Source of the DNA: Lingula anatina
Lineage: Eukaryota; Animalia; Brachiopoda
Assembly: GCA_051362555.1 (NCBI GenBank)
Contig: CM120647.1
Coordinates: 19,630,651-19,694,650, forward strand
Reading direction: 5' to 3'
DNA: 64,000 nt
Positions 3,223-36,450 of this stretch are shown here, piece after piece. The notes under the pieces are model-generated. The model was not told the origin of the DNA and did not search any database. It saw only the letters and a program-made list of their open reading frames with translations. Numbering within the stretch: position 1 is the first letter of the stretch; every line of letters starts with the position of its first letter. The position numbers and the translations under genes are program-made.

Positions 3223-4379
3223 TCAAGGTTGAACTTCTTCAATGTGTTTTCATTATTCACCCAATGTTTCGATCTGTTTCTGCAATGCTTTGATAATTTC
3301 ATTTTGGATTTCTGGACTTTGTATGCAGTTATTCTATCTGCAAATTTACTAAAGGCCCCGTCACACTTATTCGGAATCAGCAGGAATCAAGCAGAATGAG
3401 CCTAAATGAAATTTTTTCAAAATTCGCACCACATTCGGGAAGAAAGTTCAAATTGACCTACCGTATATTCTTGTAAGAGTACCGTTGGAATTAGCATTAA
3501 ATAAGTAACATCCCCCTCGAGATCCAAATATTATTTCAGAAATGTCAAAATATCATAGAATCGCATTTTTTTTCCAATTGCACCAAGTACTTGAACAAAA
3601 TGAAACTTTTTGACAATGTTTCTGGTGAAGATACGTTACGTAGTATTAGTCATGACGCAAATCCCCTTGAGTTACAGTTTAAATATAAAAACACATCCTT
3701 ACATCATGCATTATTTACCATGACTGAATCACTAAAAATAAATCGGAACGTGGTATAAAAATTATAATTAAATGACACGGAACATACTTTACCATTTAGA
3801 GCTCTTTACGTAATGTAAAGACATGGTAAAAATTAAAATTTAAATTGAGACTGTCGTGGATTTTTGTATACACATATATTTCTTATATAGATACAACTTT
3901 GATTAAGCATGTAAACTGCACCTCTATATTGGGTTTGCGTGTGCAATCGGGTCTCTCCTCTTTTATTTTATAGATCAAGGCCGGACGAAAGCACTCTTCT
4001 GAGCCTCGGAGATGATTAGAATTTTTTCAAGTTTACACAGATGGGCATCTAATTTTTATGTCGGAAATTCAACATACAATCCAGATGACTAAAAAAATAT
4101 CCGTTAATCTGCCCCTATATATGTATATACACACACTGGACAATAGAAGTGTCACCCCTACTGAGACAAAACTTTGGGGGAGATAAATGACTGCTCCTGG
4201 AATAATTGTATTCAAATCAAATTTCACAAAAAGACCAACAATACAATTCCATGGTACAGCGGTTTTATACTCATTAGATACATCATAAGTAGACCAGGCA
4301 TTATAACTACTCAAGATCTACCTACTTTGATTACCATCAAGTCCTACACAAAAAGCTGCAGCTGTACAAATGTAATGAG

Positions 4380-6026
4380 CAAGCACTCTCATTGTTTACA
4401 TCATATCTCACAAACAGGAAACAGCAGACAATATTTCAAAATGAAATATCTGAACCCGTACCAATCACTTGTGGAGTCTCCCAAGGCTCCATCTTAGGGC
4501 CTTTGTTTTTTATCATTTTCATTAATGACCTGCCACTTCATATTGATAATGGAGAAATTGATATGTATGCTGATGATTCAGCAGACATGCTGAAAACTTT
4601 TCAGAGTGGACAGACATTTAGACCGGTAGTAATGAAAAATTTGCCGGACCGAATGGATTTTTGTCGGACAGAAAATTACCCTATTCGCTTGAGACAGATA
4701 CTACCAGTACGATTAGGTAGCTTACTTTGTTTGTGAATGTGATGGATTTGAAATGGAAGGGAACAAACGCTTCGGGTTTTATATACTTTTATTACGGAAG
4801 TATGTCAAATGATGACTCTAAATTCAAAAGTGTGGCTCTTAAAACTCTTGTCGGTCCACGCCAAATTTTTTTACCGGTCCAGACAAATTTTCCCGGTCAT
4901 GACCGATCGGATCGACAGATTCATTCAGTGGTGACTGTATAATTACAGTCACTGCTAAATCTGTACCAGAACTAAATGTCAAATTAAATAAGAGCATGGA
5001 ACATGTTTTATTGTGGTTCAGGTGACATATATGAAAAAAAAAAATCAATGCTTATAACAACTAGACAAAAACGTGCAAAAATTCCAAAAAAACTGAACAG
5101 CCATTAAAAGTTATGTTCAATGGGGACATTTTAGATAATGTACAAACAAAAAACTATAAGGTGTATACGTTAATGAAAATCTTAGCTGGAATGACTATGT
5201 GCAGAATTTGAAAAAAGAATTAACAATAAACTTTTCCTTCTATCCAAACTAAAACGGCACTTAACATTGGAAACAAGGGCACTGTTTTATAATACACATT
5301 TACTACCACATCTGGATCACTGCTGCATTATATGGAGCAGCTGTGCACAACTAGAAAATATAGACAAATTCCAAAAACGTGGAGCAGAAATCATTCTCGA
5401 TATCCCAGATAAAGAAGCCAAGAAACAATATATCCAACAACTGAACTACTGAAGAACCTAAAATGGCAAACAATCTATGAAAGGATAGAATTTAAGAAAG
5501 CAACATTAGTTCTTAAAGCTTAAATAGACTTTCACCTAAATACATCAAAGACTTACTGGGAATTACAACTATAGACACTCTGCAAGCAGAATCACCCGAT
5601 CAAATAATAAGGGAAATATCTATTTACCAGTTGGCAGACATAAAGTCATACTATATGTAACTAAAGGCCCAGTATGGACCTCGATTAAAATATGGAACTC
5701 CCTACACTCTGAAATCAAAAAAACCCAAAGACTTGTATACTTTTAAAATATTGTTTTTAAAAAAACAAAAATTAATCTTAAGTATTTACTTTTAAGTCAT
5801 GTAGCTCTAGGATTTTTACTAACATATAATGTCTTCTGTCTTATTATTTTTGTTCTTCAAACTTCATTTTACCTCATTGTCATTTTAATTTCATAACTTA
5901 TTCATTTTTTATTCATTAGCACAATATTTCATTTTAACCCCCTAGAGGGCCATGTGTAGGCTAATTGTGAGCACTTAACATGTTTTCGCCTCTTTAAATA
6001 AAGTTTATTATTATTATTATTATTAC

Positions 6027-12100: not shown

Positions 12101-15100
12101 GGGGGTTAGGCAAATTGATTCTTTTTTGGGTCCTGTCTGTTTTGGTTATGGTTGGAAGTTCCTCTTCCTCATCCGACACATCTGACTCTGACTCTGACTC
12201 ATAACGAGGATTTGGTCTGTTAAAAGAAAGAAGAATGTGAAGTCATAGAATACAGGTAAGTAGAAGTATGCAAATGGGGATCAGGGCTTCAGATGTTTAT
12301 ATGGCAAAATTATTTGCACTATTTTAAGCATTTTTGTACATTATTTGGGTCTGCAATTTATCAGCTAGGTGTTGAATAAATGCAGTATATATCAGTACTA
12401 GTACTATAGCTTTGTTTTAGGTATTGTTTTAAATGTAACTGATATTTAGAATATAATATTTCCCCAATAATGAACGTTTTATTTCATTGAATATTTTTTA
12501 TCCTATTTCAAATGAAACATGTAGATTGCTATAGTTGAGCCTTCTTTGAGGTGTTCTCATCAAGCACAATCATATCCTCTTGTGTGCAGTCGTTTTTTTG
12601 TAAATGGAGGATAAAAAGTTTACTTTTCCACATTGCCTTCATTTACAAATAACGACTGCTAGTCATTCCGTGGTATTGGAACTGGGTAAGTATTTTAAAA
12701 TGATGTGTTATTTATGTGCCTGACATTTTCCTAAAAACTGAGGCTCAGGCGTATACACATTAAAAAGCTGTACGAAATCTAGTAGCAAATAAGATGAAGA
12801 AAGCTATGCATTTTCAAATACCAAAGTCTGTTCCAGTTTACAGAATGAGTATGTGAGTAGTCTGCATGAAAACCAGGCTAAACTTGCAAGTTATCAAAAA
12901 TAATCTTGTTCATCTCGTAGATCAAAAATTAACTGACAAGTTGTTGAAAGATAACTTGAAAGCATTGTGTAAATGGTATTGTAACATTAAGTGAATGTTT
13001 ACTGCCTGGTATTTGGTGCTCCATTTAATTTTAGAAATCAAGTTAATTACATATATTGTAAATTATAATGTGCCAAAGTGTCAACAATTGTTGAATTTAT
13101 AGTCTTAATTTCTTGATATTGAACCTAAAAACTGAAACGACATCTACAAATAGACTGTAAATTCTATTCTGAATTAGCACAGAACATAAGTAATCCATGT
13201 GTAGATATTAGATATGTGATATTGGCTAATATTTTAACACATTTCTTACCTCTTCTTTCTTTTACTCCTCTGAGAAGCTGGAATGATCTCCTCATTTTCT
13301 GTTACAAGGTCTGATTCATACTGGGCGACATTCAGCTTCCTCCTAACTTTGTCAAAGTCATCTGCAAAATAAAATTAATGAATCGACATTGAAATGTCAC
13401 ATTTTGGACTGAAACATGTGAATATGTGTAGCATGCACATTAGTTCTAGATGTTCGAAACATATGATAGAATGCCTAATAGTAGAAAATAATGCTCACCC
13501 TGTTCATATAAAATCCTCACAGTATACTTCTTCCACGAGGATCTGTCCGGGATAAGATGGGCCTTTATGGCAGGCTGTACACTCTTCTCTCTTGAAATGG
13601 GAGGCCAGAACGCATATTTTCTATCCTCTGATAGCCATTTATGTGACACAATAGCTATGACACAATCGTCTGCGAATTCGACCAGGAGAAAGGCCATTTT
13701 TCTAGAATAATTATATTTAAATCAATTAAGTTATAAATTTGAAAGCCAAAACCATGTGCTTCCTTGCTACTGATGTTTTCACAAAGAGTTGAGTCTATAT
13801 AAGAAACAGCAGTATTCTGTAATTTACCAACACATTTAGGGCTGTGATTAGCATGTAAGGCTTAAAATCCTAAAAAGATAATATGATGAGATAATAAAAG
13901 TACACAGGGTCATTGATGTTGATCTAAGTGTACTAATTCACGGATAGATGATCTCAACAATGTCTTTTATTCATTTATTTATTTTTTTTTTTTTTTTTAA
14001 CTTGGATGGAATGTTGGATAGAAAATTATTCACACATGAACCAACATGATTTGTTGCAAAACAATAGTGCCTCACTAGAAAAAGAAAACTTGGAAAAAAA
14101 AAAAATATATATATATATTGGCATGGATGTCTACCATACTGCATCTGTGTATGGGATTGCAATGTGTTTGTGGTGGTATGGCAGAAGAACACATTTTGCT
14201 TCTACTTCAGAAATGGAGGCAATATGAAGGGTGACATCCAGGCCAAACACTTTGCCAATTCCCAGAAGAGTTGATAGGAGAGGACTATCAAAAAAATCTA
14301 CAAAATGTTTAAAAGACTTAAAACAATATAGTACCGATATTTCGCCAGTACTATAAATGAAGAACATACATCTTTTGGGGGCCTAAAAGATTTATTCGTA
14401 TATTCTTATTTTCCAGTTACAATGCATTCTCTTTTATCCTATAGATCATCATTCCAATGTCATGATGTATCACAAAGTCTTTCTCCTACATTACCTTATT
14501 TGGTAATGTAATAATTCCTCAGCTCTTACACAATGTCTATGATTATCCCTTTTTCCATAACTTTCCATCATTACGTCATTACCAAACTATAATCATTCTC
14601 TTATTAGGCAATGGTATGTTACTTGACCTTAGGTCGCCATTTCTATTAATACAGATTTTTCATTGTATCATCCTGAAGGAATGATAACTATACTCCCTTA
14701 TTCTTTTGTTATTATAGAACAACACATGCACTCTTTAACTCTCTTACTTACACTATTTAACCTCTTAACAAATGTATATTGTATTAGTTATGAAAGGTAC
14801 AATGTATTCATTACAATCACAACTTTGTATCTGTACTTTTTTAAAATCATTTTCATTACGATATACACCCTCTCTTCAAATAAATTCGTCCTCGAATTCC
14901 CTTTTTTTATTACGATATACATTCTCTCTATTTTATTGAATGTAGAAGCGCAAGCATTGCATAACTAAAAAAAAAAACTATTTAAAAATTTTTAAAATAC
15001 TGTTGTTAGACTTTATAATATGGTATAATATAGATATATATAGTTATTTAGTTGACATGAAACAATTAATATATTAGAAAGGATAAATACTACTAATCAA

Positions 15101-18100
15101 ATTTTGCGATACGCGTGGATGCGTAATGTGTTTTCCTTTATTGTCTTTAATGTGCGGCCTAAGAATACACATGCTGAACTTTATTAATAATTTTGTGTAA
15201 TTTTAACATGTAATTCTCTTATTATGGCTCTGACACATTTTTATAATATATCTTCTTAAATACACTATGTTGGATTATAGGGTCATGACTCCTTTTCGAA
15301 TATACAGCCATCATCACCAACATTGTGACCAGCACATTGTCCGTGGTGAAAATCTGCATTTCGTTTGTTATTATCATCCATACTGTAGTGTTTTCCTTTA
15401 TGGTTGTGAATAACCACTATTTATAATACATTTACGTACATCCACAATTTGTTGATATTCAAAAACAATAATTCCTTTCAAATTTTATATTTGTTGTTCC
15501 ATGTCATCTTGCTTTCTAAAATAGAAATTAGTTCCACTACATTAATTTGCATGCAATTTAGTCTACTGCTAATAATATATTGTTATAAAGTGTATAAAGT
15601 CTAAGGTAACAACAATATACTTACCTGTATATTATTTAATAGTAATTCTTAACATATTACACAATATGTCAATGACATTTAAATCATTAACCATTTGTCA
15701 AGGATATAATGTTTTATAATTTTAATAATTAAATTAAAGTTCATTCAATGAAAATAATGTTTATTCTGCATCATTTACAACAAAATAAACGTATAGTCCG
15801 TGTTTGTGACTATTCTTGTGAATAAATGTCCACAGTTTCCTGTATATTCACTAATATTCAATTGGAAATCTCCACTAATATTTCCATTATAAATCATTCA
15901 TAAATGTCAATCAAATATGAAATTATGTCATATTCATTCACTGAATAATTCATTGTGACTATATTAATAATATGATATACGTATATGTATATACATTAAA
16001 AGTCAATGTTCATTTGTTCCAACATTTTGTCTCTGGAACAGAGTTCATTACATTTCATGTAAAATCAGTTCATCTCATTTCAGTGTCATATGTCCATCTG
16101 AATTTATTAATTAATGGTACATTCCATACATTTAAACACATTTAACATAAAAAATATTTCTAAATACAAACTGTCGTACACACATCATGAATGCAATTGC
16201 TATGCTCCGTAATTTTACTATGCCGTTCTTTTAAAATTTGATGGTTTGAAAATATCAAGTTATACTTAAGATTCTATGTTCGATCCGGTGCACGTTGGTG
16301 GACAATATCGAATGTAGGATAACATTCCAGCATGTTTAATGGCTAAAAATTTGTAAAATTCGCGATCAATAATTTTGTTTAATTGTATTGCTTTTATAAA
16401 CGAAATCGGAACACGTGCTGGTAGCTGTATTGTCTGACCAGTTACGTAGTTTGTTATCACCAAATCGTGCCAATCAATCAATAAATTTGATCTAATTTTA
16501 CCTTCAATTTGTAAAATATCAGAGATCTGCGTCATATGAAAATGCCAGGAATGAGGACTTCCATTCAGTTGAATAATAGGAATAGTAATGCATCGTTGGT
16601 CATTGGCAATTTCTAAAATAAGAAGTGCCTTGTGGAAGATGCATAATTTCTTAATAATTTTATCTCGTATCCAAACTATAGCCAAAATTACACAAACACA
16701 TGCAATTAGAAATGTTATGAAGGAATATGGATCATCACAAGTTGTTTGTACTTCATAATTAATTTTTGTAGTTGTACCCAATATCCATGTTGGTACAGTT
16801 GGCATCGCTTCACCTGTATTAACATTTTTAAGGGTCATCACTGTTAGCGTTAAAATGCGAATCTTGATACATAAGTAGATCACAACGAGCATAATTGCAC
16901 TCGAAACTGCTAAGGAAATCCAAACTAAAGATTGTTTTGAATTTGATGGAAGCAAAATCTCATTTGCTGCAATAGCATCTGCCATTGAAGAATACATTCT
17001 TTTATTGTGTTTTGCTGCTTGAGCTAGTTTTCTTAAATTCAAATGATCTTTCATATCCTGCGCTAAAAATTTCGAAAAATCTTGTTGGTACATGTGTAAT
17101 CTGGAAGAATTAGTATCAAGGGGTTGAGAAAAGAAATCATTACTTCCTATTTGTGATATTTCTTTGTTGGAATAAAAATATTGCAGTAAACCAAGATTAA
17201 CAGGGTGCAATTTTGTAATTGATGTATCATTCTTGCAATCATAAACACGCGGAGGCAAATAAAAACTATCTAAGGTTAAACCGCAAAAACATGAGTAATG
17301 TATCACACAATATTGACAGCCTGGTTGGGAAGTAGTACTTGTAGGGCACTCCACTGTTATATCAGTGATATTATATAACAACAATTTTCCTATTGATAAT
17401 TCGCGCACGTTGGGTTGAACGACATTATGCAGAAAACGGAAATTACAAGTTTCAGTAATAACGTCTGACAAGTCAAAAAATAATGCTGTAACACAGGAGA
17501 AATGCGTCGCAGTCCTGAAAGGATACACGAAAGGACATAATTTGACATGATCTCCATGACATTTCTTCCAGGTAGGATTATTCATGGGAAAATAATGTTG
17601 TTTATCGTGAGAAATAGCCAAATATTTTGGTAGATCCAGTATTTGTGAAGCGTGGTTTGTAGATTGATTTAAAGGAACGGGGAATGTTTTTACTTCATAA
17701 ACATCTAATGTATGGGGATAAGCAGAAATAGGAATTTGTAGGTTAATGAATAATGAATTTTTGTGTTTTCCATATGTAAACTGTCCTTCCTTGAAATAAT
17801 ATTTAGGATTTGAATAAATAACATGTAGCGGATTGATCGTTTTCTGTGCTTCCTTTTCAATTTGATTAATGATCTGTTTTAAATGCTCTTGGGAAACCAA
17901 CAATGGCGATAATTGCCCTTTTGTCAACTGTAAACATCCTAACAATACGTTGTTAAACGCAAACATTAATTGAGAATTTGCCATATTTTCATGCATAAAT
18001 ATTCTTGATAAATGGAATACAATACTCCTTGCCGTATCACTTTGCTGTAATTGTGAACGTAATTGTTTTGATAAATTATAATTACGAACAACGGCCTTTT

Positions 18101-21100
18101 TCATGTTTTCCATTCTGTGGTCTACGTTGTGCATAAACGAGGATAATTCGTGTCCTTGTACTTCAAACCTTTTTTCGTTTGTTTTTATAAACAGCTTAAC
18201 ATATTTACGTAGTTCATCTACATCTGATTCACTTGATACTCCAAACAAATTTTTAAAGAAATTTCCCAATGGTAACAATGATCTTTGAGAACGGGACTGA
18301 TCTTTCATTTCAATATCAGGTAACATATCATATATTGCATTTAAAGTGATGTTTAAATCGTGTACCGTCTGACTTTTCATTGACATCAAGGTTTCCAGGC
18401 CCTTGTGAATGTAATAATAACAATACATATACTCTTGATTAGGACAAGGTGACTTAATATTCTCTACTTCATGCAATCTAGGTAAATCTAACTTGAATGT
18501 ATGTTTCCAATATCCAACTCCGGTAATCATTCTAGTAATTGGTTTAAATTCTACACCATAATTAATACGCTGTTCTGCTACACTCACTGTAACTGTCAAC
18601 ATACAAATGGTGATGAGAATCTTCATAACCAGTCCATTAAAGTTCAGGATTTTAGGGAATATGCAGAAATTGGTCAACCGTGGCTCATCTAGAGAAAGAT
18701 AAGAAATATTTGATAGTAAGAGAAAGTAGGTGAAAGTTTGCGCATAGCCTTAGTTAATCATATCTAAATTATCCCTAAAATTTTCTTCTCAATTAACTTT
18801 AATGAGATTTAAATAAAATTTCGTCTATTAATCATACATTCTTTTCTATATTTACTAACTATTCTTTACTTTTCTTCTTTCTTTTTCGTTGACCTTGTAA
18901 TGTTCTGTTTATGTGAAAATCTCGTTTTAACGCATCTGATATATTTTCTTCTGGTTCCCATGTAGGCGTTTTGTAATTTTTCCATTTCACTTTGTAATGT
19001 CTTTTCTTGTTGATGTTTTTACAACATAATAACCTTTCAACTTCATACCATTCGTCTTCATTCACATCATTTGTTTGGGCTTGCTCTTTATCATTCGATG
19101 CGTTTTGTGATTCACTGTCCTTTGCTAACACTTCTTGGGTTATCTTATTTTCTTCACTTTTGCTCTCACTAACTTTTCTATAGCGTGTATAATCTCTAGG
19201 GTCATAGTACTGTTTTAATCTATTTGCATGAACAGGAGATGATAATTCTTTATGAGTTGTGCAGTCTCTCAGAATATATGTATAACCTGTCGATAACACT
19301 TTTGTTATGTAATAAGGACCTTTATATTTCACATGCAATTTTGAACTCAATCCTTTTGGTGTCAAAGGTGTGTATACCCACACTCTATCTCCTATTCTAA
19401 ATGTTGGTACCTTCGTTTTTTTATCATAATTCTTTTTATAAACTTTCTGTGCTGTTTCTTTGTTTTTCGTGGCAATTTCCCTAGCTATCTCTAAATTTTC
19501 TTGTAGTTCTTTAATATATTGATGCATATTCTGTACAGGTTTATCTTCAGCTAAGATATCTGTCGCTTATACTCTTCAGTCTCCCCTCCTTGTCAGGGGC
19601 GCAACCTAGGCTGAGTACCTTTCCCACTAGCTCACTTACTAGCTCATTCGTTTTCAGTTTGCTAGGGCCTGACTGTACATTGAGCTGAGCGCGGCTGCTT
19701 TTCTTAAGTCTTACTGCCTTCTGCGACCCAACCGGCCGGTGACCCAGTCGATAGCGATCACTCAATCCCGTAGAGCTTACCAAGCTCCCAGGGAGCAACC
19801 GACGGTCTGATCCCGGTCCCACTGCCATGGGTTATCGGAACTTTGACCGTTTTCACCAGCCTTGCCTGTTCACCACCGTGTTGGAACATCAACATCGCGT
19901 GGCTAGGTGAGGACTGTCGTCCCCGTACCACTCAGTGAACTTCACACTGAGCCGACTAGACGGTACCACAGTATCCTGTTAATTCAGGATTCGAGACACA
20001 GTGGGCCTTCAGTCTTCTCCCACAGCACTATAACACCTCTTTAATGTGCCCCTAGAGCCTTGCGACTCCACTGCCGCCTGTTTTAGACAGAGCTTCGGGG
20101 AGCCTATCCCCCTCGCCTATCTAAAGGTGTACGCATTTCTTTTCCAAAAACTAAATAATATGGTGAATATTTAGTAGATTGTGTACACGGTGTCATTCTC
20201 AATGCCATCATTACTCCAGGTAATATATCAGGCCAATTCATTTGGTCTTTCTCACAGTATGCTCTCAACGTTTGCGCAATAATAGAATTTGTTCTCTCAC
20301 ATACGGCATTTGTTTGAGGATGCCATGCACTCGTATGATACCGTTTTATGTGAAACAATTTGCATAAAGATTGAATTATCAAGGATAGGAAATTCTTTCC
20401 GCGATCTGAAATCAAATATTTCGGACACCCGTAACGTGTAAATACATCACGGTAAAGTGCCATTGCAATTTCTTTTGCTTCCTGTGTTTTCAAAGGAATT
20501 GCTTCAGAAAAATTTGAAAAAGCGCACGAAACTAACAAGATGTATTTGTAACCTTCTTCAGACTTTGTCAACGGACCAAGGATATCCATATGAAGTCTTT
20601 CAAACACATTTGTTATTGGCAATGGATTCAATGGTGCTGGTGCATCTTTCCGCAATTTCTTTACTTTTTGGCAAGTTTCACAAGATTTAACGTATTCTTG
20701 CACATCTCTAAACATTGCTTTCCAGAAATATTTATTTCTAATTGATGCGAATGTTCTATCACAACCTTGGTGAGCACCTGCTGCGAGCGAATCATGATAT
20801 TCATACAATATATCACATCTTAAATCTGTTGGAACAGCTAGCTGTTTTATGATTCTCAAATTTTCTGTTTTCCCTTTTGTCCTTGGTTGGTAAAGGTGAT
20901 ATAATATACCGTCAATCATGACGTACTGCTCAGATTCTGCAATTATCTTTCGCATTTGTTTTAAGTCATTTGGTAATTCACTATGTTCTAAATAATTTAT
21001 TATATCACTAAAGTCAGGACATTCTTGCTGTTGTTGTTTCAATCTATCTTTTTCATTTTCAATTTCTACGTCAATAGCAAATATCTGACTATTTCCATTC

Positions 21101-24100
21101 TCATTTTGTCTATTTACATTTTCTGTTTCTGTTGCTACATATAACCTAGCTTGCACCCAACCACTGTTTTGACACTTCTGTCTGCTTATATCATCCACGA
21201 CATGTACACAATCTTTGTTTTGTAAACAATTGTCTTCATCATATTCGCGTCTTGATAGAGCATCAGCTGGGTTTGTTTTTCCAGCTCTGTGTTCAATTTC
21301 AAAATCGAGGCCCTGTAATTTCAATGCCCATCTTATCAATCTACCTGTGGAATGTTTCAACGTTTGTAACCACGTAATGGCTTTGTTATCTGTGAAAACT
21401 TTGAAATGATTATTAGCCAAATACGATTCAAACTGCTTTATTCCTTCTACTACTGCTAAACATTCTAATTCATGTATTGAGTAATTCTTTTCTGCGTTGT
21501 TTAAAGATCTGCCACCGTAGGCAATAACTCTTTCTCGGTTATTTTCATCCTTTTGACCTAAAATAAAACCGATTGCTTTAATAGATGCATCTGTGGTTAA
21601 TATGAATTCTTTTGTCATATCCGGATATACTAAGATGGGTGGTGACACAAGTAAGTCTTTCAATTGTTGAAATGCTGACTGACATTCTTGATTCCATTCA
21701 AATTGAACATTTGTTCTCAATAATTTGTTTAAAGGTTCAGTTATTTTACTGAAGTCTTTAATAAATCTCCTATAAAAATTACACAATCCTAGATAACTTC
21801 TCACATCTTTTGTACTTTTTGGAACAGGAAAAGATTTCACTGCCTCTAACTTTTTATCGTCTGGTTTGATACCATCTTTTCTAATCACATGCCCTAAGTA
21901 TTCAACTTCTTGCGTTGCAAATTTACATTTACTTGGTTTCAGTTTTAGGTTGGCCTCACGTAACTTTTTGAACACTAAATCCAAATGATTCAAATGATCT
22001 TCAAACGTTTTGCTCATTACCAATATATCATCGATATATATCAGAACATTTTTCCAATTCATATCTTTGAACAGGTCATTCATAAGAGCTTGTAGACTAA
22101 CACCTGCATTCCTGAGTCCAAATGGTAATTTAAGAAATTGAAAATGTCCATGGTGTGTAATAAATGCAGTTTTGTGTTTTGTTTTGGGATCTAATTTTAA
22201 TTGCCAATATGCTCCTGCCATGTCTAACGAACTGAAATATTCAGGTTTTGCACTTCCAATTGCATCAAAAACGTCCTCTAAACGAGGTAATGGCCAATGC
22301 ATAGGCACTGTAACTTTGTTCAGCTTTCTATAATCGATTGCAAATCTGTACTCGTTCGTTTTCTTTTTCACTAAAACTACAGGAGAACTATATGCACTCA
22401 TACTTTCTTCTATAATCCCATGTTTCAACATTTCGTCAACTTGTCTTACAATCTCTTCTTTTAATTTTGGAGATGTTCGGTAAAACGTTTGTTTAATGGG
22501 AATATCATTTTCTGTCTGGATATAATGTTCATATCTGCTGGCCGTGCCTAACTCTGACATGTCTTTGGCAAAAACGTCACGATTTCGACCAATCAATAAT
22601 CTGAGTTGTTCTTTTTGATTTTCATTCAAATTAGAATTTATGATATCTATTCTCAGTTCTTCTGTATTTTTAAGTGCTATCTCTTTAGATATATTCTGAT
22701 CTTTGTTTTCATTTTGTGTCCCAATTTCTTCCAACACACTTACACTATGTGCCTCTACAGAGCACGCTTTAGCTAGGACTGTTTTGCTTGGTAATATTAT
22801 ATTTTCATCTGTTGGGTTCAAGATTTGATAACATGATCGATTTTTATCCACTGTTACCAAACATTTAGATCCTAAGATGTTTCTTTTACATGCTAACTGA
22901 TTGACTGGCTCTAACAATGCTGTATGTACACACGAAGCATGCGAGATTTTCACTGGAATTAAACATTCTGATTTTGCTGGAATGGTCTCTTTTCTAATGG
23001 ATCTAACAAATCCAATATTTGGAGGATTGTATAAAGGTAATTCTAAGTTGTACTCAGGTAGAGTAAAACCGTCAAAACCGACATCTATTTTGACATTGTG
23101 TTTTTTTAGAAAATCCATGCCTATGATCAATTTTCGAGGTAATATACGTAAAATACAAAATTCGTGATTGATAACTACATCGCCGAAACAAAGGGGTAAT
23201 TCTATCAAGCCAAGAACCTTTTGAACAGAACCATTTATTCCTGAAACTTCTTTTATATTTGATGATTTGTAAAATTTTGAATCCTTTTTGTTAATTGAAC
23301 TCAAAAATTGTTCTGACACACATGAAATCACAGCGCCAGTGTCTACCAATGCATCAACGTGCATTTTCGAAATTTTGATTGATAATAGATTGTGCATTTG
23401 ATGATTTTCAACATTTGAAAATTTGACGCATTCGTTTTCTTTTTCGTTCTTCTTATAATCTAGTCATTTATTGGCACGTGCGTAATAACAAATTTTAGAA
23501 ATATGCCCAACACGGTTGCACACGAAGCATTTCAAATTTCTAGCATAGCAATTTCTTCGAAGATGCGTGTACTTACCGCAACTCAAGCACATTGGGAATC
23601 CCTGCTCTTCTGAACGTTGACCTGATCGTGGGCCAGATTGTTTGTTTTCACGGTGCATGCTGTCTTGAAAATCGCCTCTCCTCCGATTTCCGATGTAGCG
23701 GTTGCGCGTACGATAAAATGCACCTGTCTGCTGTCTTCTCGGTTGCATAGGAGTCTGCGTCTCTCTTTGGGACGTCCCCATGATGTGCACCTCTGCAGGG
23801 CGAGTGGCGTTGATTACCTGGCTCATCTGTGCGCCGAGAGCATCTATTTTGGCTGTCACCTCCATGAGGTCCACGTTCTGCTTTATGCTGGAGGGCTGTA
23901 CCGCATTCTCAGCTAACCTTGCCTGTGACATCAGTTGGTCTAGGTCACGTGGCTCCTGTTGTACAACAAAGGGACGGATCTGTGGCAATAGACCGTTCAC
24001 AATTGCTGTTAACGTGATTTTTTCATCGAGTTGTGCCAGTTTGGCGTCATGTCTCATGGATGCGATGTAATTTTGAACGGGTTCCCCCGGCAGTTGCTGC

Positions 24101-27100
24101 CTCTTAAACAGTTTTGATGTTATAGACCAAGTTTCCGTGTTTCTTGGCCTATATCTGTTAAGAAATTCTTCTTTGAGGTTTCTCCATTCCTGTTTCACTT
24201 CCTCGGCCAAAGTTTCGTACCAGTCTAATGCAGCATCAGTGATTAATAGAGGAAAAATTGAAATAATTTGATCGTGATCAAGAGCTTTAAAGTTAATATA
24301 GTTCTTGAAATGATCTAACCATCTATCGGCGTCCTCTTGACCGTTTCCTTTAAATTTTTCAGGTGCTAGGCTCCAATCTGAACTCATGTTTTCCAGTGTT
24401 TTTATTTTCCTTCCCAAAGTTTTTCTAAATATTTCTGGGCTTTTAAGATATGTTGAGATGGGATCGCCGGGCAATTGGCTATTGTTGTTCTTTTTCGTCG
24501 TCGCTGCTGATGTAAATTGGGGACTCGGGGCGGTTGGTGAACTGTTTAATGGTACTGCTATTGATTGTTGGTGGGTCTTTTGTGGTGGGCAAATTGTCTC
24601 TGGGAGTTGAATTTTTGAGGTCGTCGTCGTCTGTATCTTCGTCACTGATGACGATAGGTGACTCGGGGCGATTGGAGATGGGTCGGTTTTTGAGGTCGTC
24701 GTCGTCTGTTTCTTCGTCACTGATGACGATAGGTGACTCGGGGCGATTGGAGATGGGTCGGTTTGGCCAGGTAACTCTGAAATTTGTGTCGTTATTGTCG
24801 TCGGTTTCGGTATCGCTATTGCTGTCGGATTCACTACTGAGGTCAATGATAATGAATACTTTTCGCCTGTCTCTATTTTTGATTCGTATAGTTCGAGATT
24901 CGTTGGAACACATTGATCAACAATTGAAAATGCGCTGTTTCCTACTGTTTCTGATTGTGTATTTACGTTAATTTGATGAGTAGTCTGTATTTCTTCGTCG
25001 TCAGACGAGTCGCTTGATGAAAGCAAGTTGCGACGTGAAAGTTTGTTTCTCACACACTTTTCTTTGGTTATAGATGGAGCAGGTGAAAAGTTTGGTGTCC
25101 TTGTATAAAATTTGATTGTTTGTTTTGGAAGTCTCTCTGATGTCTTACCTTCCAGACCCTCGATTTTCTTCTTTTCTACTGCTTGCCTAGTGTTAGCTGC
25201 TGGTGGACTCCAATCTGCTGGATTTTCTCCTTGCATCTAGAGCGTGTAGGTAGCTGGATCGATTTCTTCCACCAGTTATAGTACCGATATTTCGCCAGTA
25301 CTATAAATGAAGAACATACATCTTTTGGGGGCCTAAAAGATTTATTCGTATATTCTTATTTTCCAGTTACAATGCATTCTCTTTTATCCTATAGATCATC
25401 ATTCCAATGTCATGATGTATCACAAAGTCTTTCTCCTACATTACCTTATTTGGTAATGTAATAATTCCTCAGCTCTTACACAATGTCTATGATTATCCCT
25501 TTTTCCATAACTTTCCATCATTACGTCATTACCAAACTATAATCATTCTCTTATTAGGCAATGGTATGTTACTTGACCTTAGGTCGCCATTTCTATTAAT
25601 ACAGATTTTTCATTGTATCATCCTGAAGGAATGATAACTATACTCCCTTATTCTTTTGTTATTATAGAACAACACATGCACTCTTTAACTCTCTTACTTA
25701 CACTATTTAACCTCTTAACAAATGTATATTGTATTAGTTATGAAAGGTACAATGTATTCATTACAATCACAACTTTGTATCTGTACTTTTTTAAAATCAT
25801 TTTCATTACGATAACAATATAAACTGGGGCATTGTCTTCTATACCTTGCTGTTCACACGCATGCAACTATCTCTACAGTTAACATTCAACATGAAATTTT
25901 CTGTTTCCACCTTGCAAAACTGTGTGCCTGATTTTAGAGTATCTGGTAAAGGGCCTTTTGCATGACTTTTGGACAAAATTGGATATTTTCTAGAAGGATG
26001 TTTTTCTTCTGATGCACAATGCTCAGACAGCCTTCTTACAACTTGTGCTATTGAGAAGGATGGTTTCCGCACCATGCGTTTTAGTTTCTGTAAATAATTT
26101 TCAAAAGGAAATGCTGAAATATTATCCAGGCTCCCAAAGTTGTTTGAGAGATGTGTTAACCCATGAACATTGTATACTGCCATTTCTTGTCCATACATTT
26201 GCATAAGCTGCTGTACAAAAACTACAAGAAGCTCATTTATCACAGCCATGATAGCCAGAGAAAGACTTAATGTTTTTTATGAAGGCCCGGGCAGGTGTGT
26301 CACAGATGAATGAATGAATGGATATGAAAACATGTTTATCATGGCAAAAAAAAATCCACCTTGTATTTGTTTACACTCGTCAATAAAATCCTGTAAATAA
26401 TCGTCTAAATTATTGGGCTTCGATACCCCAGAGAATAAAGCAAGGAGTAAAGGCTTTTTGTCGGGGAGGTTTACTATTTTGCCTACTAGGGGCCAGAAAC
26501 TCTGGTTTGTGCTCTTAAATAATGGAAGCCCATCAATATTCAACTGCAAGTTGAATATAAAATCATCGGAAATGCAGTCACCCTGAATTAGACTTGAAAT
26601 GCTGTTTACAATGCCAAAATAAAAATATTGGCCACCACATTTTTGTATAATCTTATAATGGGTTTTTGTTTTTTTCAGTGTTCTTGGATCTTTAGGTAAT
26701 TGTGGGTGATACTTAATTAGCATCTTAAGAAGTTCACCCAGGGAATGATCAGTGATTTTATTTCTGATTGCCCACTCTTTTAAGTTTTGCACCAAACTAT
26801 TTTCATCATCTTTCTCATTGGAGGCATCCATCACATTTTCAGATAAAGACAATTCATGGTCTTTGTCATTGGAGACATCCATCTCATTTTCAGATAAAGA
26901 CAATTCATCATAACTAAGCACAGAATCACTGTCTGCTTCTGTCTCAGGGGGATCTAATGCAACTGGTACTAGGGAACTAGAAGCACCTTTTGGTGCATCA
27001 GAACAAGGGGGCATCCTATCCATGTCTAGCATGTGGGCTGCAACTCCTTTTTTGATGCGCCTTCGCACTGACCAGAATGAAATACCAGATTCTGCCAGAA

Positions 27101-30100
27101 TGAAATACCAGATTCTGCCATGACAGGGGAGGGGGGGGGGTATCAGTATATTGCCTTCTTTGATAGAAAAAAAGGTATCTTACATTTACAACCCACTGTG
27201 ATCTCAGTAGCAAGGATATGCTTAATTAATTTAGAATGTTTGCAGGGAACCAGAGGATTTGAGTAGGGAAACAAGCCTGAAAATAAAAATAACCTTGTGA
27301 AGTGTTAATGATGAAAAATTTATAACATTAACTACAACTTCCCCCAATGTTTCAGCCCCACCCCAAAAAATTTTAATTGAATTAAATAAATAAATAAATA
27401 AATAAATAACAAGGCTCATAACAAGGGTTAAAACAATGTCAGACAATGGCAAAGATATACTTAATTTTTTTAAATCTGCAGGATGTGATTAATTTTCGAT
27501 TGTTTCCCCACAGAATTATTATTCATTTTTATGTAAAGAATGAGAGAGCACTCGATATTTAGTTCAAGATGAATAGCCTGAAGTCTAGATTGACAATACA
27601 TCGATTACTGCAAGGGGTCATTTAAGATTTCACAAGAAAAAAAATCTGAAATATATCCTAAATTTTATATTGGAAAAAAGTTATGATACATTGTAGAATA
27701 GAACCACAAAGAAGAAATTCCAAGTGATAATTTGCATTTTCAAGAAATTAATTTTACTCATCTCCCTCCCACGATCCCTTTTTATTTTTTTACTATTTTT
27801 TTCTTACACTGCATAGCATTGTAAATTTCACACTGAAAGGTCTCAGTCTAGCTTGTTTATTTACCTAAAAAATAAAATTGTTTCTATTTTTAACGTGTTG
27901 ACGTTATGTGTTTCCCACAATGAACTGTGACTACATCCAAGTTCACGTGTTGAAGCTGCGTCCGTCAGTTGGAGTTGAGCGGGCACCTGCATTAGGTGTG
28001 TTCACGTCGATTACCTGTGTTGATTAAAGTATCACGGCGATGGAAGATAATTTCTTGTCATAGTGATAGCATGGAGTACATTGTCGCTAATACCCCCTTT
28101 ACACTGGACGGCATCCTTTCTGCGTCCTTTCTGCGACCATGAAATTTGGCATCGCTGTGGTCTTAATAAGGAGGCACGAGCACTAATTTTGCATCAGAAT
28201 GAATGCTCAATGATCGGCCAGTTGTCGGCACGTAAAATATTATAATTTTTAAACTCTCAAATGGGGCCGTACTGCTGGACGCAGAAAGGACGCCGTCCAG
28301 TGTAAAGGGGGCTTAAACAAAACTTGTGCGGGCGGCTCTTTAAAAGTTTTTAGATCAAAATATGCTTTTCTTTTAAGATGTACCAGTACCGCATGGACAA
28401 GCATCGGCGCTGTTCTACCGAAACATTTGGCTGTTCAAGGCAAAACTCCTGAAAGGTATGATGCAATTTAGTAAACTGAAACGTTTAGAAATTTAAATCG
28501 TTGGTTATACCCCCTTTACACTGGACGGCGTCCTTTCTGCGTCCTCTCTGCGACCATGAAATTTGGCATAGCTGTGGTCTTAATAAGGAGGCACGAGCAT
28601 TAATTTTTTATCAGAATGAATGCTCAATGATCGGCCAGTTGTCGGCACGTAAAATATTATAATTTTTAAACTCTCAAATGGGGCCGGACTGCTGGACGCA
28701 GAAAGGACGCCGTCCAGTGTAAAGGGGGCTTAAACAAAACTTGTGCGGGCGGCTCTTTTAAAGTTTTTAGATCAAAATATAATTTTCTTTTAAAATGTAC
28801 CAGTACCGCATGGACAAGCATCGGCGCTGTTCTACCCAAACATTTGGCTGTTCAAGGCAAAACTCGTGAAAGGTATGATGCAATTAAGTAAACTGAAACG
28901 TTTAGAAATCTAAATAGTTGGTTTGGATACATTGTGGTTACTCATGTGTGGACGTAAAGTTTATTTTTGCAGTATTCCCCCATTCGCCATATAACGAAAA
29001 ACTTTGATTTCAACGTCTCTTCTAAATGTATTTGTGTGATGACTGAGTAATATATACAGGTATGTATATAGATTTTTTTTACGTTTAAGGGTGTATTCCC
29101 AGAGATTTAGATAGATCCAGGGATTAAGATTTAGATCAACCTAACTTCCTGGGGGTTCACGCTAAATTGCAGTCAGCCGAGCGCGCACCATAGTTAATTA
29201 CCCCCTTACAGCTTTCAGTAGGCGGGACAGACGCTTAAGCCGGCTAAGCTGACAGTAATCAAGTGAGACTCCCCACAGGGATAGATCGATCTAAAATCTA
29301 TGGAAATGGGGTCTAACTTGATGCCATTCAAATATGCTGAGATCTGTGGGCATCGCTTGCGTCAAAATGTGCTGTGACCTCGTTGGTCAAAGAAGTTGAA
29401 GGTTTTATGAAAAAAGATAGAAATTAGTTAGTGGATGTCTAAACTAATTTATTAGAATAGCAGAAACAATTATCACAATCACCACATAACTTGTTTTTGA
29501 TTAACATTTTAAATGAGAGACTATAAGTTTAAGGGACTGCTGCAAAAGTACTTGAACGTCTGCTGGTATAGAAATAGGTTGAGTTTAACTTTTCCACGCT
29601 AGTTTGTTACTTTGTTTCTATTTGTGGTATTCAATCTGTTGTTATGGAATTTTTCAAATTTGGTCTGTGAGTGAATGTTTGCTTGATTTAAAGCAAGACC
29701 ATTTATAGTTCAGGGAGGGGGGCTGTATTTTTAAATCTTAAAAGACAATTTTATATCTTAAAAGACAATAAGTTTTTCTTGTTTTCCTTTCAGTTGCTAA
29801 CAACAATAGTAACTTTTTTATAATCTCAGAACCAAACACCCCTGCACTTATCTTAAGCATTTGTTTTTATGGGAGGGGGGGGGGGCATTTCACCCCAGAT
29901 CATTTGACCTTTATAAATGTCCTCTGTAAATTAACCAATCATCATGGACTGGATTGAAAAACTATCTACAGTGTTACCAACTCTAGTAGGCCTACTACAT
30001 GTTAATGAAAATGTAAAGTCTATGCCAATTTTTTTAAGCCTGTACTACTTCAGGCACGCAGGGTCCAAAAATGGGCAAGTGCCCGAAAAAAGATTATATA

Positions 30101-35416: not shown

Positions 35417-35463
<47 letters not shown>

Positions 35464-35779
35464 GCACACACACACGCACACCATATAGAACAGGGCAAAA
35501 GCACTTACATCTGCGGCAGTATCAATAAAGGACAAACCAACATAATGTTCTAAATTTGGCTGCTGCATTTATTGTAATGTCTCTCTAAAAAGAAATGTGA
35601 ATAGTACATGATACTGAATTTTAATTGAAGAATCTACACGTTTTATTGTCAATTTATTCCAAGTTTGTCTTTAATCTATTTAGACGGAGAGAAATATAGG
35701 CAAATTTAGTATAAGGAAGACAAAGCATTACTCGCGTTAAACGTATATATAATATTACTCTGTTGTAATGTACTCAAAA

Positions 35780-36080: not shown

Positions 36081-36364
36081 TTTTCTGCAACACGGAACCT
36101 CAGTTTTGTTACATCCGTATTTGACATGCAGTTATGACATACATCATACTTTGAACGTTTCTAAATACACGTACGTGCCCTTCTTTCTATGTGGAATTTT
36201 TTATTATGGGCTCGCTATTTTTATAGGTGCTCTCAGACCCAGGATCGATTCCCGTCGCTCTGTCTTAACGCGACTGACTTAAGTGACCTCCTTGCTCATC
36301 TTCATGGTCACCTGATAAGGTGGCATAATTATACGTGTGGTACCGTGGGAAACCGATCAAATGC

Positions 36365-36450
<86 letters not shown>
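36365..36450. repeat. (TG)n(GA)n microsatellite
   Basis: Seen directly. Similar (CT)n(CA)n tracts at 2595-2645 and 35420-35480. Confidence 0.95.

Follow-up and report, generated by a model that had tools for sequence, protein, structure and literature searches.

How does a young retroelement come to carry, inside its integrase-coding sequence, an intron-like insert that reverse transcription of spliced RNA would delete? The question is raised by a stretch of 64 000 nt of Lingula anatina DNA (assembly GCA_051362555.1, contig CM120647.1, positions 19,630,651 to 19,694,650), hereafter the window, in which positions 14327–25813 of the minus strand span exactly one unit, from long terminal repeat (LTR) to LTR, of a Ty3/gypsy-type, chromodomain-bearing, env-carrying element. 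A preliminary description held that this element had transposed recently and yet retained a self-splicing intron, and saw a paradox in the retention. The recent transposition is borne out: the 5′ LTR (element sense; 25277–25813) and the 3′ LTR (14327–14863), each of 537 nt, are identical at 537/537 positions, and they are flanked by a 4 bp target-site duplication, TTGT in element sense (ACAA on the plus strand), at 25814–25817 upstream and 14323–14326 downstream, which could also be drawn as 5 bp if the LTR ends were placed differently. Identical LTRs and the duplication thus mark the element as young. Our working hypothesis, to which we give a probability of about 0.55, is that the 555 nt insert in its pol gene (19564–20118, minus strand) is a divergent group I-type self-splicing intron without an open reading frame (ORF), which was reverse-spliced into RNA of the element and was then reverse-transcribed and integrated with it.

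The insert forms a sharp GC island (53–55 % GC versus about 33 % around it). In element sense the upstream flank ends in ACACCUUUAGAU, the insert begins with AGGCGAGG and ends with AUAAGCG, and the downstream flank continues with ACAGAUAUC. In sequencing run X3 (DNA, organism A) a contig of 2675 nt with a depth of 458 covers 17261–19562 and then 20118–20490, and in run X7 (DNA of organism A from a separate study) a contig of depth 324 makes the same insert-less join. Both omit exactly 555 nt (19563–20117, with an ambiguity of 1 nt), differ otherwise from the window at three positions (X3) and none (X7), and show no target duplication at the empty site. The common genomic form of the element therefore lacks the insert precisely and is 99.9 % identical around the site. 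The boundary that places a U before the insert and a G at its end is 20118–19564, and the G at 19564, whose position is set by the insert-less contigs, is the predicted terminal omega-G.

The reading frame fits these boundaries. Upstream of the insert, pol (20119–23463) encodes the Pfam domains RVP, RVT_1, RT_RNaseH, Integrase_H2C2 and rve, in that order; downstream, the C-terminal region of integrase and the chromodomain (18859–19563; Chromo, E=1.1e-9) lie in the pol frame once the 555 nt are left out, within an open frame (19566–18859, 235 amino acids) that holds the remainder of integrase and the Chromo domain. All three checks of the frame arithmetic give zero, and in insert-less copies the frame runs through as TPLD TDILAEDKP. 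The insert itself lies in sense orientation and in phase with pol, but pol stops four codons into it (TPLD-RRGG, then a stop), before the C-terminal part and the chromodomain, so that the preliminary description was right in saying that spliced RNA is required for a full integrase. Splicing would be predicted from the sequence to restore TPLD/TDILAEDKP and with it full-length integrase including the chromodomain. A diverged subfamily of the element, seen as a loose end at 20117 in X7, reads TPLD-SD-LIPE without an insert. A protein search with the last 200 amino acids of pol found eight relatives, all 37–61 % identical, and the related integrases P0009 and P0013 are uninterrupted at the homologous position. 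The subfamily and the related integrases thus show the insert to be derived and the insert-less state to be ancestral for the element. Near the same point, two related integrases from other assemblies, P0008 and P0009, are nearly identical up to PFDTS, after which P0009 goes on as integrase and P0008 terminates with WCKISCD; the two part two residues past the site homologous to the insert, and the P0008 tail matched no frame of this insert. Within the insert, ORFs in all frames gave no Pfam domain, and hence it has no homing endonuclease; a protein search with an antisense ORF that crosses the 5′ junction gave no candidates.

Far from lacking relatives, a finding that the preliminary description would have counted against its own proposal, the insert is a member of a multi-copy family with differing flanks, whose copies occur in two or more organisms as well as in marine meta-omes. 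A comparison at 85 % likeness, based on contigs from X7 (organism A), X11 (organism B), X12 (a seawater metagenome) and X14 (a marine metatranscriptome), gave many matching contigs in all four sources. The matches fall into the blocks 19605–19936, 19946–20032 and 20040–20118, and the breaks between the blocks correspond to two hairpin loops (19937–19945 and 20033–20039) in which other copies have other or longer sequence. At the 5′ side the matches end at 20116–20119, and each of five contigs then continues with a different sequence, which indicates that the 5′ end is a true element end. More distant relatives are represented by six spurious ORFs in ENA assemblies, with 48–81 % amino acid identity. 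By blastn and nhmmer no second copy of the insert was found in the 64 kb window. Exact-pattern scans of metagenome_contigs with conserved 20–23-mers and one gapped pattern gave 0 matches; three of four such scans of viral_contigs were empty and the fourth gave one match, while one scan of genome_contigs was empty and the other gave two. The viral_contigs and genome_contigs matches (L005–L007) were considered as family copies and dismissed as chance, none of them extending past 20–21 nt. In RNA of organism A (three poly(A)/total runs, about 6 % of each read) 25 reads (10+12+3) were placed on the window, most of them in two bins over the insert, with 95–99 % identity and a strand bias. These two properties imply that it is other copies of the family that are transcribed; the element itself received only stray RNA reads, and no joints.

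The 5′ junction of the insert has group I-type features. The putative 5′ exon strand of helix P1, UUUAGAU (20119–20125), in which U20119 is the predicted splice-site U, pairs at 7/7 positions with a guide sequence GUCUAAA within the insert (insert nt 31–37; 20082–20088), with a U.G pair at the junction; the exact match of guide and exon noted in the preliminary description is thus confirmed. The helix extends into insert nt 1–4/26–30 and is capped by a hairpin, and the P1 hairpin as a whole (50 nt) folds at −22.4 kcal/mol (z = −3.65), with only 1/200 shuffles as good. A U at the end of the 5′ exon held in a U.G pair by an internal guide is characteristic of group I introns, as are the terminal G and the clean joining of exons without duplication or loss; this copy has the U.G pair and the G, and the insert-less contigs show the clean join. 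Other copies of the family differ at guide nt 32, 35 and 36, and the flanks differ with them. A contig from X12 (175 nt, depth 25.8) has the flank AAACAGGU, ending in AACAGGU, directly before the insert, together with the guide changes 20087A>G, 20084T>C and 20083T>A; the resulting guide, GCCUGUA, pairs with ACAGGU through six pairs with the U.G kept, three positions being altered on both sides. A contig from X11 (depth 16.3) has a flank ending in CAAAGGU and the guide GCCUUUA, again with six pairs and the U.G kept. In X11 the linkage of guide to flank depends on arithmetic with the depths of six contigs (90.9, 39.6, 16.3, 108.0, 3.3 and 4.4, together 262.5), in which the depths of the three substitutions fit in only one way, a fit that assigns all three guide changes to the contig of depth 16.3. 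In X7, only about 80 of the 827 depth units at guide position 20084 carry T, as in the window; 549 carry A and 198 carry C, so that a single genome holds a diversity of guides. The preliminary description took the exact guide as adaptation to this site; it is better read as the choice of a target by a pre-existing guide variant. At the other junction the first bases of the 3′ exon pair at only 3/5 positions with the bases that precede the guide, and for this reason we claim no P10.

A putative catalytic core, P3–P8, can be drawn at insert nt 258–448 (19671–19861), as suggested by a topology search, the consensus of the Rfam model RF00028 and conservation in relatives. The search was blind to sequence and required stems of at least 4 bp in group I order with a P3/P7 pseudoknot: P3, 2–4 nt, P4 with its 3′ strand, 0–3 nt, a P6 hairpin, 1–5 nt, P7, 0–3 nt, P3′, 0–6 nt, a P8 hairpin, 3–10 nt and P7′. 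The solution has a score of 86, against 67 for the next independent solution and 68.1 ± 4.7 for 150 dinucleotide shuffles, one of which (1/150) reaches 86. Its predicted stems are P3 (insert nt 258–266/377–385; 19861–19853/19742–19734), P4 (269–274/312–317; 19850–19845/19807–19802), P5 (278–283/304–309), P6 (318–326/356–364; 19801–19793/19763–19755), P7, GACUG/CAGUC (370–374/444–448; 19749–19745/19675–19671), and P8 (386–393/429–436; 19733–19726/19690–19683); the candidate junctions are AA between P3 and P4, AAA between P4 and P5, CUAUC between P6 and P7, and CAAUGUA for J8/7 (19682–19676). The P4–P5 and P6 arms alone fold as in this model (z = −2.76). The reference consensus was obtained by running RF00028 on phage T4 and reads P3, AAU, P4, AAA, P5, uAA, P4′, P6, UUCAaA-GACUA, AA, P3′, A, P8, UgAAGAUA-UAGUC, P9, G. 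The order of the insert core matches it, with similar junction lengths and AAA at J4/5 in both; P7 is GACUG/CAGUC in the insert versus GACUA/UAGUC in the consensus, with four of five pairs identical and the fifth changed from A-U to G-C, and the last six bases of J8/7 before P7′ are AAUGUA versus AAGAUA. An alternative core with CUAGCC/GGCUGG (nt 213–218/258–263) as P7 was dropped, having no partner for P3 and a J8/7 that would be 17 nt long.

Conservation follows this outline, and in distant relatives it is highest in the segments of the putative core. Among the six distant relatives the peptide RYRLGHRPVG, encoded by nt 362–391 (J6/7, P7, P3′ and the start of P8), is invariant, and RLVKTVKV (nt 252–281; P3, J3/4, P4 and J4/5) and LNVQSG (nt 434–451; the end of P8, J8/7 and P7′) are invariant or nearly so, while the tip of P8 differs among them in length and sequence. 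None of the 34 listed substituted positions falls within the 89 nt of the core (14 further rows stand outside this count); they lie in the guide, in loops and in the extensions of P6, P8 and P9. In P6 the changes seem to be compensatory: the pair 325–357 goes from U-A to C-G in P0002, P0003, P0004 and P0006, and possibly to G-C in P0005, and the pair 321–361 changes from U-A to A-U in P0006; in P8, one-sided changes in relatives preserve pairing. These P6 and P8 changes were read from codons, that is from amino acid differences, and not from DNA. Hairpins with GNRA loops also occur in the insert, and a P3–P9 ribozyme fold is what the model as a whole would predict. In the region between the guide and putative P3 (insert nt 40–257; 19862–20079) there are two such hairpins (GCAA and GACA). 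Within it the block 19946–20032 shows zero differences in the X14 contig, 19946–19999 is unchanged in the X12 contig, and 19962–20032 has one difference in X11.

A number of observations weigh against this interpretation. No match to Intron_gpI (RF00028) was obtained with Rfam release 15 at E≤10, whether with 12 kb, 681 nt or the 216 nt core; at gathering thresholds and at E≤10, for the whole window also, there were only chance-level matches to unrelated families. That model does miss true members at its cut-off of 50 bits (three phage T4 introns, run as controls, scored 105.3, 40.3 and 35.7), yet the insert scores far below even these controls. The putative P3, P4 and P7 show no variation among the sequences examined and so lend no covariation support, the pseudoknot of the core depends on a P7 of 5 bp, the isolated P8 folds no better than shuffles (z = −0.95), and an X11 contig has indels extending into the 3′ strand of P8. 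The stretch of roughly 220 nt that separates P1 from P3 equals the core in conservation, and the proposed fold does not account for it. At the 5′ junction, a third X11 copy (depth 39.6; guide GUCUUUA, flank GAGAGGG, 5/7 pairs of which two are G.U) has G, not U, at position −1; this G would be expected if an excised intron with its added guanosine had been copied into DNA, but also after a simple mutation. The contig of the abundant variant in X7 (depth 548.6) ends exactly at insert nt 1, which implies that its flanks already differ at −1. At the 3′ junction a second locus also has ACAGA directly after the insert (loose end at 19559), and reverse splicing, even with the weak 3/5 P10, does not obviously explain a sequence common to two loci. 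No spliced or ligated-exon RNA was seen among the RNA reads placed on the window. Furthermore, the share of sampled words of 19300–20400 is at most 0.62 in each of ten DNA runs of organism A; such a share is about what the flanks and the words shared with the family would give, and the exact insert-bearing allele seems to be private or rare. Finally, that reverse splicing preceded integration is a step that we infer. Of the earlier claim of a self-splicing intron there stand the U and G at the boundaries, the U.G pair of P1, the covariation of guide and flank and a putative core like that of group I introns.

In spite of these points we consider reverse splicing into RNA of the element to be the best account of the locus, and of the two explanations offered in the preliminary description, reverse splicing fixed by a reverse transcriptase is the better fit, with the enzyme being the element's own. 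We propose that free RNA of an intron with this variant of the guide would reverse-splice after UUUAGAU in genomic RNA of an active, intron-less family, and that the intron-bearing RNA would be packaged, copied and integrated by the machinery of the element, leaving identical LTRs and a target-site duplication; intron-less siblings would provide the proteins, including integrase, in trans. In full-length RNA of the resulting element, P1 would present U20119 for attack by guanosine, exon ligation would yield full-length integrase including the chromodomain, and unspliced RNA would yield integrase truncated before its C-terminal part and chromodomain. The insert-bearing copy seems to have arisen by one very recent capture, because the insert-less form is dominant, the relatives read through the site and the exact allele reaches no more than the above share of words in the runs. 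On this reading the retention paradox dissolves, because the intron would be a passenger picked up in the last replication cycle, not something that the element maintains: the dominant genomic form lacks it precisely at 99.9 % identity, and the subfamily and relatives of 57–61 % identity read through.

The observations can be explained in other ways. The intron may have entered a DNA copy that was already integrated, by recombination with cDNA of a reverse-spliced transcript or by some other step at the level of DNA. The sequence does not date the insertion relative to integration, and the insert family is abundant and transcribed; on the other hand, the insert has no endonuclease gene or other protein domain, the recombination step is an extra one that ordinary replication of element RNA does not need, and identical LTRs leave little time for it, so that we regard this course of events as unlikely. 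To much the same degree we doubt that the insert is a structured, non-autonomous repeat other than a ribozyme, be it similar to short interspersed elements (SINEs), introner-like or of another kind, which arrived by template switching of a reverse transcriptase at microhomologies or through the enzyme of another element and whose pairing between flank and guide has some other cause. The failure of Rfam to match, the interspersed, high-copy nature of the family, the two flanks that read AG/GUA(A/G)G and so resemble spliceosomal donors, and the possible microhomologies (ACAGA after the 3′ end at another locus, AGAUA at the 5′ end of an organism-A copy) would suit such a repeat, but the insert has no target duplication, tail, terminal inverted repeats or tRNA-like part, its ends in this copy are AU/AG and not GU, and no pyrimidine tract precedes its 3′ end. 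Template switching would moreover leave unexplained why guide nt 32, 35 and 36 match unrelated flanks with the G opposite U kept, and the putative group I-like core with its pattern of conservation would be unexplained as well.

Less likely still is a stable intron-bearing lineage, in which unspliced RNA would be packaged as genome, spliced RNA would serve as pol mRNA, and intron-less copies would be by-products of the copying of spliced RNA. Such copying would yield exactly the insert-less junction observed, and the direction of change can therefore not be polarised from the insert-less contigs alone; the sense orientation and phase of the insert would suit a lineage of this kind also. However, the insert-less contigs dominate (depths 458 and 324), no contig was shown to bridge insert and element, the X7 bin beside the 3′ junction is present only at the depth of the insert-less contig, the diverged subfamily and the relatives of 57–61 % identity are continuous at the site, and the exact allele is absent from the organism-A runs listed. 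The selective packaging envisaged in the preliminary description is not upheld in the face of this dominance and of the low share of the exact allele, and we found no evidence for its further suggestion that splicing tunes the proportion of chromodomain-less to full integrase. That the insert is an assembly artefact, arising from a chimeric read or a mis-join, is very improbable: the exact allele was indeed not found in the public runs listed, but an artefact would not give a unit of 555 nt in sense and in phase, with a 7-base guide match and U and G at its boundaries.

Several known classes of insertion were considered and rejected. An introner or spliceosomal intron is contradicted by the start of the insert (AGGCGAGG after GAU), which offers no GU at either allowed boundary, by its purine-rich 3′ end and by the absence of a duplication. 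A SINE is contradicted by the lack of a tRNA-like gene (ARAGORN), of Rfam matches to tRNA, 7SL or 5S RNA, of a tail and of a target-site duplication, and a group II intron by ends that read AGGCG...AAGCG, not GUGYG...AY, and by the lack of an Rfam group II match. Helitrons are recognized by TC...CTRR ends and by insertion between A and T without a target-site duplication; neither strand of the insert has such ends or an A/T target.

With the nuclear group I introns of rDNA (types IC1 and IE, such as the LSU intron of Tetrahymena; reviewed in PMC3679873) the insert shares a P1 U.G pair formed by way of a guide, a terminal G, a P3–P9 core with a P3/P7 pseudoknot (here putative), GNRA hairpins and a dispensable ORF. 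Their spread by reverse splicing has been proposed (PMC1299323). Unlike them, the insert interrupts the pol gene of a Pol II-type retroelement, its family is dispersed and multi-copy with variable guides, and it has a conserved domain of 220 nt between P1 and P3 and goes undetected by RF00028. According to a review of 2013, all nuclear group I introns then known were in rDNA (PMC3679873), and in 2025 introns matching RF00028 were reported from polinton-like viruses of protists (PMC12220804). The introns of polinton-like and other DNA viruses resemble the insert, so far as that report describes them, in having a mobile or viral carrier in a nuclear genome and in interrupting a protein-coding gene, but those of the polinton-like viruses are given there as 309–376 bp long and detectable by RF00028, in DNA carriers for which no RNA-copying step is implied (PMC12220804). 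The carrier here is a reverse-transcribing element, in which, unlike in the polinton-like viruses, reverse splicing could be fixed directly. Introners, as portrayed in the reports that we cite, are multi-copy, intron-sized and frequent in marine eukaryotes, target transcribed sequence, and are transposons that are spliced by the spliceosome and whose target duplications help to make splice sites (PMC9860276/10.1101/2022.06.06.494994, PMC12130899). The insert family is likewise multi-copy and intron-sized, but this copy has no GU start, duplication or inverted repeats, and its guide pairs with the flank. Plant Ogre elements and Penelope-like elements carry spliceosomal introns that are ancestral and maintained in the lineage. 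As in those elements, the intron here splits a coding region and spliced and unspliced RNAs would have separate roles, so that the same question of retention is posed; in contrast to theirs, this insert resembles a ribozyme, is derived and was observed in a single copy.

The remainder of the element is what would be expected of the Metaviridae: besides LTRs and a short target-site duplication it has gag, domains in the order protease, reverse transcriptase, RNase H and integrase, a chromodomain at the C terminus of integrase, and a third ORF. A sequence resembling a primer-binding site (TGGTGG...; approximately 25257–25274) lies just inside the 5′ LTR, and a probable polypurine tract, GAAGAGAGGG (14868–14877), adjoins the 3′ LTR. 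The gag gene (23464–25236, 590 amino acids; Pfam Retrotrans_gag, E=2.2e-9) ends in UGA in frame with pol; this stop codon (23464–23466, minus strand) has CUAG immediately after it, with no change of frame into pol. A UGA-CUAG context favours stop-codon readthrough, which suggests that the gag-pol product would be made in this way and not by frameshifting. Within gag there are a tandem duplication of 75 nt (24612–24761, 99 % identical) that repeats a serine/acidic peptide, a GC-rich patch at about 23500–24100 that reaches 53–55 % GC, and, at 23828–23868, a difference in one contig of X3 (depth 51), where six other letters replace 39 nt; here copies of the element differ by an indel. ORF3 (16266–18626, minus strand), an open frame, is a candidate for an env-like class I fusion glycoprotein of the F type: it has a signal peptide and membrane segments, and a hydrophobic stretch comes after its RSQR site. 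It had no Pfam match, and its nearest neighbours by language-model features are Baculo_F/gypsy-env clusters (score 0.95), for which reason the assignment to env is to be taken as a lead only.

Elsewhere in the window, the last third (40520–64000) is filled by a satellite whose tandem units, about 1414 bp long (1385–1414), number at least 17 and are 94–100 % identical. An isolated RVT_1 fragment at 4293–4736 (plus strand; E=4e-7) is a remnant of another retroelement. An inverted pair of microsatellites, (CT)n(CA)n at 35420–35484 and (TG)n(AG)n at 36361–36450, is separated by about 880 nt, and just upstream of the element, at 26802–26903, a tandem duplication of 51 nt (90 % identical) lies in an open frame. 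Two open frames in 25839–27179 had no Pfam match.

Returning to the insert and its capture by reverse splicing, a literature search gave no report of a group I intron within an LTR retroelement or another reverse-transcribing element of nuclear genomes, and the published nuclear cases outside rDNA, as represented by PMC12220804, concern DNA viruses and polinton-like elements. What is new here is thus likely to be a divergent family of group I-type introns whose guides vary, encountered within a reverse-transcribing element. It is tempting to go further and to speculate that an ORF-less family of group I ribozymes behaves as a retargetable mobile element in nuclear genomes of marine eukaryotes, with point changes in a guide of 6–7 nt redirecting reverse splicing into new Pol II transcripts, reverse transcriptases of resident retroelements writing the outcome into DNA, and the window preserving an event one replication cycle old; this wider proposal is tentative, and we hold it at somewhat worse than even odds. 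A practical consequence is that annotation based on RF00028 overlooks the insert family completely. Reverse splicing followed by reverse transcription is the textbook, yet unproven, route of group I introns to new sites, and the pieces that it has lacked are a natural reverse transcriptase and a means of entry into the genome, both of which the RNA of an LTR retroelement supplies. If our reading is true, this locus offers an event dated by identical LTRs, a known empty site and a guide that fits its target; together with a family of variable guides, it would make the reverse-splicing route directly testable and would extend group I-type introns to the reverse-transcribing elements of nuclear genomes.

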